A DNA stretch of 64,000 nucleotides, taken from assembly GCF_000026545.1 (NCBI RefSeq), contig NC_011601.1. One strand, 5' to 3'. This document shows positions 4,321 through 7,439 of this stretch, piece after piece. The notes under the pieces are model-generated. The model worked only from the letters and a program-made list of their open reading frames with translations, did not search any database and was not told where the DNA came from. Numbering within the stretch: position 1 is the first letter of the stretch; each line of letters opens with the position of its first letter. The DNA comes from Escherichia coli O127:H6 str. E2348/69 (GTDB taxonomy: Bacteria; Pseudomonadota; Gammaproteobacteria; Enterobacterales; Enterobacteriaceae). The translations under genes were made by a program, and so were the position numbers.

Positions 4321-5458
4321 TCAGGCGTCACGCGGTAACCCTTTTTCAATTACCCGAACCAGACGCTGTTTTTTCGGCAATTGCACTTCGACTATGCACG
4401 CATTTCGTCTCTCGATTTGCTGCGCAATCGCCCACGCTATGTGCTCATCAAGAAGTGGGTGCTCACCTTTACGACTTTCCAGCGCTGTCAAAATCGTTTC
4501 ATCCCAGGGGGCATTGCCTAATGCTACGGCGATATTACGCAGCCAACGCAGGTGACCTATACGGCGAATCGCCGAACCTTCCGTGACTTTTAAAAACTTC
4601 TCTTCACTCCAGGCGAATAACTCAATGAGTTCCGGTGCGTGTAGCGGCTTACGCGGGCTGAAATCGTCTTCTGTAGTGAGTTGCGAATAGCGATTCCACG
4701 GGCAGATAAGCTGGCAGTCATCGCAACCGTAAATACGGTTTCCCATTAACGGTCGCAACTCTTCTGGGATCGCCCCTTCCAGTTCGATGGTGAGATAAGA
4801 GATACAGCGGCGAGCATCGACGGTATATGGCTCGACGATGGCACCGGTCGGGCAAATCGTCATACAGGCCACGCATTTACCGCATCCTTCCTCGACTGGT
4901 TGATCCACGGGCAGCGGAATATCGACCAGCAATTCGCCTAAAAAGAAGAACGAACCGGCCTCGCGATTGAGGATAAGTGAGTGCTTACCTGTCCAGCCAA
5001 GACCTGCTTTTTCAGCTAACGGGCGCTCGAGAATAGGCGCAGAATCGACAAACGGTCTAAAATTCAGCGAAACACAATGTTGCTGAATCATCTCGCCCAG
5101 CTTTTTGAGTCGGTTGCGCAGAAGCTTGTGATAGTCACGGCCCAGCGCATAACGGCTAACATAGCCGAGTTTAGGATTTTTCAGTGTGCTGGCAAATGCG
5201 GCGTTAGCAGGAAGGTAATTCATCCGCACGCTGATCACGCGCAGCGTACCGGGCAATAATTCGTGAGGACGAGCACGCAGCATACCGTGACGCGCCATCC
5301 AGTCCATTTCGCCGTGGTATTGTTTGTCCAGCCATGCTTGCAGTTTGGGCTCGGACGCGCTGAGATCGGTATCGGTAATACCTACCTGCTGAAAGCCCAG
5401 TTCCAGCCCCCACTGTTTAATATTTTGCGCTAATTGATTGAGATCGAGGGGCTCTGAC

Positions 5459-5460
<2 letters not shown>
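4321..5460 (-). CDS. queG: Epoxyqueuosine reductase
   Basis: ORF 4321..5568; recalled QueG N-terminus [23 protein letters not shown] gives start at 5460; 4Fe-4S ferredoxin Cys motifs (CGKCVACMTICP, CDDCQLICP). Confidence 0.9.

Positions 5461-7439
<1,979 letters not shown>

Follow-up and report, generated by a model that had tools for sequence, protein, structure and literature searches.

The queG and nnr genes of Escherichia coli meet head to head, and the locus raises the question of whether two housekeeping genes start on the same four nucleotides, where the signals that express each of them then lie, and whether such an arrangement has a regulatory role. We analyzed a 64,000-nucleotide stretch of the E. 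coli E2348/69 chromosome (NC_011601.1; the window). A sequence-only reading, assuming 379 aa for QueG and 515 aa for Nnr, had proposed that the two ATG codons share the central AT of a CATG palindrome. The features that define the junction are as follows.

4321–5460, minus strand: queG CDS, tRNA epoxyqueuosine(34) reductase, 379 aa plus stop (TIGR00276; Pfam QueG_DUF1730 and Fer4_16; RefSeq)
5459–7006, plus strand: nnr CDS, bifunctional NAD(P)HX epimerase/dehydratase, 515 aa plus stop (NF007856; Pfam YjeF_N and Carb_kinase; RefSeq)
5458–5461, both strands: CATG palindrome; the queG ATG is the complement of 5460–5458 and the nnr ATG is 5459–5461

The CATG lies within GACATGAC (5456–5463). On the minus strand the queG frame reads MSEPLDL... 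from ATG 5460–5458 to a stop at 4321, with (M)SEPLDLNQLAQNIK as the predicted N-terminal peptide of QueG, and on the plus strand the nnr frame reads MTDHTMKK... from ATG 5459–5461 to 7006. QueG is a full-length match to the TIGR00276 family (509.8 bits, cutoff 200), and Nnr scored 1026.2 bits with NF007856 (cutoff 703), residues 1–509 aligning to profile positions 1–509. The CDSs share nucleotides 5459–5460 and hence form a divergent (head-to-head) overlap. The same 2-nt overlap is annotated by RefSeq/PGAP in E2348/69, in two other E. coli strains and in K-12 MG1655, so that the shared AT is borne out by the reading frames and by the RefSeq and K-12 annotation alike. The nnr gene is the first of the nnr-tsaE-amiB-mutL-miaA-hfq... 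transcription unit, and its co-directional overlap with tsaE in the window is 29 nt. An Rfam scan detected no known RNA element at the queG/nnr overlap; the matches were three tRNA-Gly genes and a sub-threshold tRNA-like sequence. Since there is no intergenic DNA between queG and nnr, the control signals of both are interleaved. As a whole explanation, it is probable that CATG 5458–5461 is the true head-to-head junction of two housekeeping genes, with all control signals interleaved. That the CDSs and the transcripts overlap is already known from the reference annotation and from published lists of overlapping transcripts.

The control signals were assigned to the following positions.

5492–5500, minus strand: predicted queG promoter, extended -10 TGGTATACT (TG-n-TATACT), 7–8 nt upstream of the published transcript start and supported by codon constraint and a motif census
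5461–5484, minus strand: queG 5′ leader, ∼24–28 nt, U-rich, antisense to nnr codons 1–9, its start mapped from the tabulated U00096.2 position 4392114
5058–5063, plus strand: predicted nnr-operon promoter -10 TAAAAT, inside queG codons 133–135, within an invariant run and 7–8 nt upstream of the tabulated operon start
5071–5458, plus strand: nnr 5′ leader, 388 nt, antisense to queG codons 1–130, drawn from the tabulated operon start
5446–5451, plus strand: nnr Shine-Dalgarno GAGGGG, 7–9 nt before ATG 5459, written in queG codons 4–5 (Pro-Leu, CCC CTC)
5071–5484, both strands: region transcribed in both directions, 413–414 nt (PMC7373196, entries in Table 2 and the supplement, U00096.2 coordinates)

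The transcript starts, resolved to within a few nt, derive from operon mapping by RNA-seq and were taken from the supplement of another paper; the U00096.2 coordinates (4391701–4392114) mapped onto the window without indels. In the K-12 data of Conway et al., as tabulated in PMC7373196, the queG transcript starts at 4392114 (window ∼5484) and the nnr operon extends from P 4391701 to T 4408049 (start at window ∼5071).

The tabulated queG start is ∼24 nt upstream of the ATG and 7–8 nt past the hexamer of TGGTATACT (5500–5492), which is read on the opposite strand as nnr codons 12–14 (AGT ATA CCA, Ser-Ile-Pro). Third-position entropy of these three codons is 0 vs. a gene mean of 1.38 bits. Of 78 gammaproteobacterial loci, 42 carry the strict form of the motif, TGTGnTAnA[CT]T, upstream of queG; 764 kb of background contained none. 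The predicted P_queG has the organization of an extended -10 (TGn) sigma-70 promoter, with correctly spaced elements and an unrecognisable -35. An independent laboratory has a PqueG deletion strain, for which the deletion primer omits 31 nt, 5490–5520 (PMC10950094). A consensus -35/-10 scan of 5100–5850 revealed no promoter for either gene and one unrelated minus-strand match (5195–5168). The scan would have missed both promoters because neither has a -35; its outcome is compatible with -35-less promoters and lends them no independent support.

Two other readings of this segment were discarded. Conservation of AGTATACCACA purely for the Nnr protein is at odds with the variation, which is confined to the n of TGn and to base 3 of the hexamer, with a Ser codon that is always AGT, with a motif that stays with queG after nnr moves, and with the Ser-to-Asn change of Pseudoalteromonas, which retains a -10 (TAAATT). 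A DnaA box was also rejected, the E. coli TATACCACA having, by eye, two mismatches to TTWTNCACA.

The queG leader has no Shine-Dalgarno sequence (the best anti-SD duplex reaches only -2.2 kcal/mol). Between the tabulated 5′ end of the mRNA, ∼24 nt upstream, and the ATG there is no in-frame ATG, GTG or TTG, and the QueG family model starts at residue 14; taken together, these leave no apparent alternative start for queG, and the comparative evidence likewise favours its ATG. A longer queG starting inside nnr, as in the Salmonella-type annotation, was rejected, the corresponding E. coli codon being ATT. The earlier suggestion that both genes have an in-frame Met shortly downstream was right for nnr (codon 6, 5474–5476) and wrong for queG, whose next Met is residue 52, inside the conserved domain.

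In the case of nnr, T-12 of the predicted -10 is supplied by the rare AGA codon of queG Arg135, and this codon may be kept because it provides the promoter base. Across queG, no invariant run in 17 Enterobacteriaceae is longer than GGTCTAAAATTCAG (5054–5067), and codon shuffling gave P = 0.007 for a maximal run of at least 14 nt. This promoter, at -388, is conserved only within Enterobacteriaceae. The anti-SD duplex for ATG 5459 amounts to -7.2 kcal/mol. Third-position entropy falls to 0.21 at queG Leu5 (CTC) and 0.0 at Asp6 (GAT), compared with a gene mean of 1.25. The prediction that each promoter and ribosome-binding site would be found inside the partner CDS therefore agrees with the map: the queG -10 and leader occupy nnr codons 1–14, the nnr Shine-Dalgarno occupies queG codons 4–5, and the nnr promoter lies at queG codon ∼135.

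The extent of the CDS overlap depends on which nnr start codon is used, and one further feature has to be considered.

5474–5476, plus strand: second in-frame ATG of nnr (codon 6), an alternative start yielding 510 aa if used; weak Shine-Dalgarno, -3.2 kcal/mol

If Nnr were made from ATG 5474, the CDSs would not overlap, the starts would lie 13 nt apart (5461–5473) and CATG would be the queG start only. In public protein collections the 510-aa call matches the 515-aa call in frequency and is found on more contigs. Such calls are plausibly the product of gene callers that forbid 5′-5′ overlaps, as the rules of Prodigal do. Codon 6 is ATG, GTG, TTG, CTG or ATT in most Enterobacteriaceae, but it is GAG, AAG, GAA or CGA in Serratia, Yersinia, Rahnella, Budvicia and Mixta, which must use the CATG start because no other in-frame start precedes the conserved Ser-Leu-Pro-His. 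Predicted mRNA opening is easier at ATG 5474 (3.5 vs. 9.8 kcal/mol at ATG 5459), whereas its Shine-Dalgarno is weaker (-3.2 vs. -7.2 kcal/mol). In one Enterobacteriaceae MAG (L020, JAGTSE010000005.1) a 1-nt insertion puts the ATG of CATG out of the nnr frame and leaves the Met6-equivalent start alone, although this insertion may be an assembly error. Finally, Thr-Asp-His (Nnr codons 2–4) is conserved only where nnr and queG are still joined. We consider it unlikely that the 510-aa protein is the product. It is still less probable that both ATGs are used, yielding 515- and 510-aa isoforms and an overlap for part of the protein pool. The two in-frame ATGs lie at a distance of 15 nt, both are preceded by some purine-rich sequence, and in Salmonella a further CATG occupies the codon-6 position, giving two opposite-strand ATG pairs; however, codon 6 is no start codon beyond Enterobacteriaceae, and the five extra Nnr residues precede the conserved YjeF_N domain, whose start is at residue ∼17, so that no functional difference between the isoforms is expected. 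Comparative evidence thus favours ATG 5459, rather than ATG 5474, as the nnr start that is probably used in E. coli.

An upstream TTG (5438) was rejected as nnr start, since it has no Shine-Dalgarno and TGA interrupts its frame in Superficieibacter, Siccibacter and Mangrovibacter. The texts or supplements of the TRAINSPOTTER N-terminomics study, the Ribo-RET preprint, the tetracycline ribosome profiling study, Giess et al. and the Salmonella dRNA-seq study mention neither queG nor nnr, a silence that counts neither for nor against the starts. The PDB holds no E. coli Nnr structure, and the nearest entry, TM0922, whose alignment begins only at residue 61, is silent on the N-terminus.

Conservation of the junction was followed from strains to orders. 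Residue 1 of QueG and residue 1 of Nnr fall on one CATG in ∼30 Enterobacterales species of different genera (tblastn), CATG is unchanged in all 31 Enterobacterales sequences that were aligned, and the same junction occurs in Tolumonas and one gammaproteobacterial MAG. Within E. coli, 5250 of 5425 genomes carry the 68-nt core (5436–5503) at 99% identity or more, whereas the 601 nt around it reach that level in 785 of 5425. Ranked by length, the top three invariant runs of DNA in Enterobacteriaceae are exactly the queG -10, the nnr -10 and CATG, the last within an invariant 11-nt run (5456–5466). Judged from these sequence comparisons, the CATG arrangement is more than chance.

The head-to-head pair is retained in Enterobacterales, Vibrionales, Alteromonadales and Aeromonadales. 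In other gammaproteobacteria the distance from one start to the other varies from -2 to ∼100 nt. Brenneria, Pectobacterium, Photorhabdus and Xenorhabdus, with nnr either displaced or missing, separate the two functions naturally. In these four genera a TGnTAAAAT/TAAACT motif is still present ∼40 nt upstream of queG, the codons of the relocated nnr are relaxed (VLPC, SLPD), and the GACGGACCAT block adjoining CATG is lost where nnr is displaced or absent. Interleaving may be what locked the queG/nnr pair together across gammaproteobacteria.

Published K-12 data bear on how the two strands are expressed. The p19-captured RNase III dsRNA cluster S-361 corresponds to window 5124–5479; in the stationary-phase set it reached 5634.8 RPM, its reads of ∼21 nt came from both strands and covered the nnr Shine-Dalgarno and CATG, and it was among the 20 most abundant coding-gene dsRNA clusters in stationary phase (PMC7373196). 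The dsRNA MS-212 of Lybecker, as cited in that paper, corresponds to 5087–5470. Divergent excludons were first described in Listeria, and the E. coli MG1655 catalogue is that of ExcludonFinder, whose core set lists queG-nnr among 16 divergent excludons and detects it in at least 50% of 58 transcriptomes (PMC12288877). The pair shares with divergent excludons opposite-strand neighbours, 5′ transcript overlap, RNase III-processed dsRNA and one long leader antisense to the partner CDS (nnr, 388 nt). The functional hallmark of an excludon is mutually exclusive expression, and queG-nnr is assigned to the class by the antisense transcript overlap and RNase III-processed dsRNA of the published K-12 data. 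Most listed excludons have an intergenic spacer (mean ∼95 nt); in contrast, the queG and nnr CDSs touch and share 2 nt, so that both translation-initiation regions are mutually complementary. The overlap had also been called extreme, a description that suits the 414-nt transcript overlap and not the 2-nt CDS overlap.

On these grounds the locus would be expressed as follows: (i) queG would be transcribed from the extended -10 TGGTATACT, with no recognisable -35, its mRNA starting at ∼5484–5488; (ii) the nnr unit would be transcribed from the promoter inside queG (start ∼5071), and its translation would begin at ATG 5459 via GAGGGG; (iii) P_queG and P_nnr would fire towards each other across ∼414 bp; (iv) the two mRNAs are perfectly complementary over ∼414 nt, both translation-initiation regions included; and (v) the paired mRNAs are cut by RNase III. 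With mRNA pairing and RNase III cutting, the locus would be a divergent excludon. Collision or pairing may lower expression of one gene while the other is active.

Known systems place this scheme in context. The pR and pL promoters of coliphage 186 are face-to-face (convergent) and subject to transcriptional interference. The queG and nnr promoters likewise face each other, over ∼414 bp, so that polymerase collision and promoter occlusion are expected; the phage promoters, however, form a developmental switch, whereas QueG and Nnr are housekeeping enzymes. Co-directional ATGA (4-nt) or 1-nt overlaps resemble CATG in having minimal intergenic DNA and a start codon inside the neighbour gene, but there a single mRNA couples the ribosomes. 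The CATG overlap involves two different mRNAs; ribosomal coupling is therefore precluded, and interaction could occur only via DNA occupancy or RNA-RNA pairing. In E. coli, one count gave 2 divergent overlaps vs. 586 co-oriented pairs, a far lower frequency for the divergent type. Salmonella enterica has the same genes, first CATG, extended -10 (AGTATACCACA) and Shine-Dalgarno (GAGGGG). It differs by a second CATG 15 nt further on, from which the NCBI queG is 384 aa with a 17-nt CDS overlap; the E. coli sequence at that position is CAATG (ATT in the queG frame), so that only the 2-nt overlap is possible.

Whether the interleaving has a function is a separate matter. A tentative interpretation, which we regard as rather unlikely, is that it is a conserved functional design, in which a promoter element sets part of a protein: Ser-[Ile/Leu]-Pro-[His/Gln] of the Nnr N-terminus would be, across gammaproteobacteria, the antisense imprint of the queG extended -10. 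Owing to the mutually complementary initiation regions, queG (queuosine maturation) and the nnr-tsaE-amiB-mutL-miaA-hfq unit would each repress the other by way of polymerase collision and RNase III. If true, it would explain why the pair has stayed head to head for hundreds of millions of years. There is also a serious chance, still short of even, that overlap and antisense transcription are real and have no regulatory role, the loss of intergenic DNA being a frozen accident of compaction, the conservation a mere reflection of the need of each gene for its own elements, and the dsRNA a by-product cleared by RNase III. The variable spacer among gammaproteobacteria implies that a fixed overlap is not required, several lineages separated queG and nnr and lost neither, and the -388 nnr promoter is restricted to Enterobacteriaceae, all of which accord with an accident. 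An accident fits less well with a pair that is head to head across four orders, with the stationary-phase abundance of S-361, or with an excludon call in at least half of the transcriptomes.

At the level of sequence, queG/nnr is a clean and rare case of DNA serving two genes, the -10 of one being three codons of the other and the Shine-Dalgarno two codons. Callers that forbid 5′-5′ overlaps would shorten Nnr to 510 aa, and the 510- and 515-aa versions are both in databases. The map further implies that deleting the 5′ part of either gene would remove the promoter, leader or ribosome-binding site of its partner. The Keio deletions retain the start codon and the last six codons. By this design, Δnnr would lose P_queG and the queG leader, and ΔqueG would lose the nnr Shine-Dalgarno and the -388 promoter, so that phenotypes credited to queG or nnr may belong to the partner. 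Whether housekeeping genes are regulated by antisense overlap at their 5′ ends could readily be put to the test at this locus.

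The window sequence at 5456–5463 is GACATGAC, with CATG occupying 5458–5461. The minus-strand ORF starting at ATG 5460..5458 encodes the 379-aa QueG (MSEPLDLNQ...), which scores 509.8 bits against the equivalog TIGR00276 (cutoff 200), and the plus-strand ORF starting at ATG 5459–5461 encodes the 515-aa Nnr, which scores 1026 bits against the equivalog NF007856 (cutoff 703; residues 1–509 aligned to profile positions 1–509). The protein lengths that the sequence-only reading had given (379 and 515 aa) and its start coordinates are correct, as ORFs, family profiles and RefSeq agree, and its claim that the two ATGs overlap within CATG is borne out by the sequence at 5458–5461 and the 2-nt RefSeq overlap. 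The overlap is already present in the reference annotation, being identical in E2348/69, two other strains and K-12 MG1655. Only within CATG can ATGs on opposite strands have two bases in common, and since each ATG is read by ribosomes on its own mRNA, this sharing is by itself of no direct mechanistic significance. [quoted passage not shown]

The transcript map is fixed by published K-12 data that Huang et al. tabulate in their supplement (PMC7373196). They use U00096.2 coordinates (U00096.3 = U00096.2 + 1977), which can be transferred to the window because K-12 is colinear with it here, without indels. As tabulated there, the plus-strand operon of Conway et al. has its promoter at 4391701 and its terminator at 4408049, with a 413-nt divergent overlap with the queG transcript, up to 4392114, and the dsRNA locus MS-212 of Lybecker lies at 4391717–4392100.

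Features of the queG/nnr junction (window positions unless marked K-12)
K-12 4392928–4394067, minus strand, queG (RefSeq annotation)
K-12 4394066–4395613, plus strand, nnr (RefSeq annotation)
5058–5063, plus strand, nnr −10 hexamer TAAAAT, 7–8 nt before the mapped start
5071, plus strand, nnr-operon transcript start, mapped from K-12, 388 nt 5′ of the nnr ATG
5087–5470, Lybecker dsRNA MS-212, mapped from K-12
5124–5479, p19 dsRNA cluster S-361, mapped from K-12
5484, minus strand, queG transcript start, mapped from K-12, 24 nt 5′ of the queG ATG
5500..5492, minus strand, queG extended −10 TGGTATACT (TATACT after TGG), 7–8 nt before the mapped start

Both transcript starts are thus preceded by a −10-like hexamer at 7–8 nt. 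Neither promoter has a recognisable −35 element, and both were missed by a consensus promoter scan for that reason. A PqueG deletion strain from an independent laboratory was made with a primer that fuses 5462–5489 to 5521 onward (PMC10950094), leaving out 5490–5520, the stretch with the queG extended −10. The sequence-only reading had also placed each gene's control signals inside the other's coding sequence, and sequence and K-12 transcript map support this. nnr codons 12–14 (AGT ATA CCA) double as the queG extended −10, and the queG leader is antisense to nnr codons 1–9; the nnr Shine-Dalgarno GAGGGG (5446–5451) is queG codons 4–5 (CCC CTC), and the nnr −10 also lies in queG.

This double use is visible at synonymous sites. 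Among 30 species, third-position entropy is 0 in nnr codons 12–14 (gene mean 1.38 bits), and 0.21 and 0.0 at queG Leu5 and Asp6 (gene mean 1.25). In an unbiased scan for invariant runs covering the whole of queG and the start of nnr in 17 Enterobacteriaceae, only 9.5% of third positions were invariant, and the three longest runs were GGTCTAAAATTCAG (5054–5067), AGTATACCACA (5492–5502) and GACATGACGGA (5456–5466); a run of at least 14 has P = 0.007 under codon shuffling. Of 78 loci, 42 carry the strict queG motif 5′ of queG; 764 kb of background sequence contains none. Outgroup variation of the motif is confined to the n of TGn and the third base of the hexamer (TATACT, TAAACT, TAGACT), and its Ser codon is AGT throughout except in Pseudoalteromonas (AAT), where the −10 is still kept. 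Invariance of the −388 nnr promoter does not extend beyond Enterobacteriaceae: GAAAAT or other sequences take its place in other families. The comparative data show selection at the DNA level on the dual-use elements.

Two further features were noted. queG Arg135 (5056–5058, minus strand) is the rare AGA in all 17–18 Enterobacteriaceae examined and CGG/CGN in other families; the first T of the nnr −10 TAAAAT comes from its A. A Dam site, GATC (5442–5445), lies just 5′ of the nnr Shine-Dalgarno inside queG codons 6–7 and is retained in 29 of 31 aligned Enterobacterales, the third position of Asp6 GAT being invariant.

A 601-nt stretch around CATG, 100% identical to E2348/69, is missing from just one of 5426 complete E. 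coli genomes. In 5250 of the other 5425 its 68-nt core (5436–5503) reaches at least 99% identity, a level that the surrounding 601 nt attains in 785. A QueG scan with one genome per species yielded 80 loci. By tblastn, QueG residue 1 and Nnr residue 1 fall on the same CATG in ~30 Enterobacterales species of different genera, including Escherichia, Citrobacter, Enterobacter, Kluyvera, Cedecea, Pantoea, Mixta, Serratia, Yersinia, Rahnella, Budvicia, Acerihabitans and Edwardsiella. The CATG junction recurs in two MAGs, one of Tolumonas and one of another gammaproteobacterium. The head-to-head order also persists in Vibrionales, Alteromonadales and Aeromonadales, where only −1 to ~100 nt separate the likely starts.

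Promoter and coding functions are naturally separated in some lineages. In Brenneria and Pectobacterium nnr is displaced by 148 nt or ~1.2 kb, and in Photorhabdus and Xenorhabdus it was not found in the 2.5 kb 5′ of queG. All four keep TGnTAAAAT, TAAACT or TACACT 40–45 nt 5′ of queG, the codons of the relocated nnr are relaxed (GTT TTG CCG TGC; AGC TTA CCT GAT), and the GACGGACCAT block beside CATG is gone. In Brenneria roseae (locus L029, 2350–2505) a frameshifted old nnr N-terminus, KKKKHLSILPHY, lies 5′ of queG and bears the queG extended −10, and the intact nnr begins 148 nt off with its own diverged version of this segment (ADVLPCVVF); judged from sequence, this looks like a local duplication that split promoter from coding function.

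Elsewhere in the window, tsaE (ATG 6978) overlaps the nnr 3′ end by 29 nt on the same strand (6978–7006), and yjeV, a 17-aa RefSeq ORF (4285–4338), has a convergent 18-nt overlap with the queG 3′ end; yjeV-queG is listed in the literature as a convergent excludon. The literature places datA, the DnaA-inactivating locus, in the glyVXY-queG interval. The first-to-second tRNA-Gly spacer is 157 nt in E2348/69 vs. 36 nt in two other E. coli strains and K-12; the extra ~120 nt lie at 3747–3861, and the 39 nt right after glyV (3708–3746) repeat the spacer 3′ of glyX (3940–3978).

The queG start is effectively fixed at ATG 5460, because the transcript starts ~24 nt 5′ of it, the intervening leader offers no ATG, GTG or TTG in frame, and the QueG family model begins at residue 14 (the following Met comes at residue 52). 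Public protein collections consistently give 379 aa for E. coli QueG. queG has no Shine-Dalgarno (anti-SD duplex −2.2 kcal/mol), and initiation therefore presumably depends on the short U-rich leader. An out-of-frame AUG in this leader (5470..5468, antisense of nnr His4 CAT) opens a 17-codon ORF (5470..5417, minus strand) crossing the queG start codon. In the Salmonella enterica locus L085, 2500–2519 (= window 5458–5477) holds two CATG sites 15 nt apart (gaCATGatggaccataaCATGaag), the second being CAATG in E. coli; NCBI starts queG from the outer (384 aa, MLWSIMSKPLDL...) and nnr from the inner (515 aa), a 17-nt CDS overlap.

nnr has two in-frame ATGs, 5459 and 5474. We consider it probable that 5459 is used in E. 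coli: its Shine-Dalgarno is well spaced (−7.2 kcal/mol vs. −3.2 for 5474), it is invariant, and in Serratia, Yersinia, Rahnella, Budvicia and Mixta codon 6 is not a start codon and no other nnr start precedes the conserved domain. The Thr-Asp-His that follows is conserved only where nnr abuts queG. Initiation from 5474, or from both ATGs, would fit a codon 6 that is ATG, GTG, TTG, CTG or ATT in most Enterobacteriaceae, an mRNA predicted to be more open around 5474, and a 510-aa Nnr that public collections contain no less often than the 515-aa form. It would also fit locus L020 (~2486–2502, MAG JAGTSE010000005.1), where a 1-nt insertion right after the CATG block (catagaaATG vs. catacaATG) shifts the ATG of CATG out of the reading frame of the nnr body and leaves the Met6-equivalent start alone; either the assembly is in error here, or this is a natural case showing that the short Nnr suffices. 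As both lengths occur in public collections, annotation pipelines disagree on the start, and we suspect that the 510-aa calls stem from gene callers barring 5′-5′ overlaps. For this exact sequence, 515 aa (5459–7003) is called on 41 contigs and 510 aa (5474–7003) on 82. An upstream TTG (5438) was ruled out by in-frame stops in three genera. A literature search found no ribosome-profiling or N-terminal data for queG/nnr.

queG-nnr is explicitly listed in the published divergent excludon class, assigned by transcript overlap: it is one of only 16 divergent excludons that ExcludonFinder reports for MG1655 as present in at least 50% of 58 transcriptomes (PMC12288877). Reciprocal expression is the functional hallmark of this class. 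Unlike typical members, queG-nnr lacks an intergenic spacer, which places coding sequence, promoter and ribosome-binding site on top of one another. Two promoters shown to fire towards each other over ~414 bp, with 5′ regions shown to be fully complementary, both initiation sites included, and to yield RNase III-processed dsRNA, would interfere mutually through polymerase collision and through a duplex blocking and destroying both initiation regions. A neutral frozen compaction is plausible, if somewhat doubtful in our judgement; in its favour, the spacer varies in other orders and several lineages have the genes apart.

The annotation and the transcript overlap were already known. We add (i) the depth of junction conservation; (ii) the synonymous-site imprint of both promoters and the nnr Shine-Dalgarno; (iii) natural separation-of-function cases; and (iv) the practical caution that a deletion or gene call made at the 5′ end of either gene bears on its partner. 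The interleaving may make rearrangement between queG and nnr costly, which would account for their long-lived head-to-head synteny.
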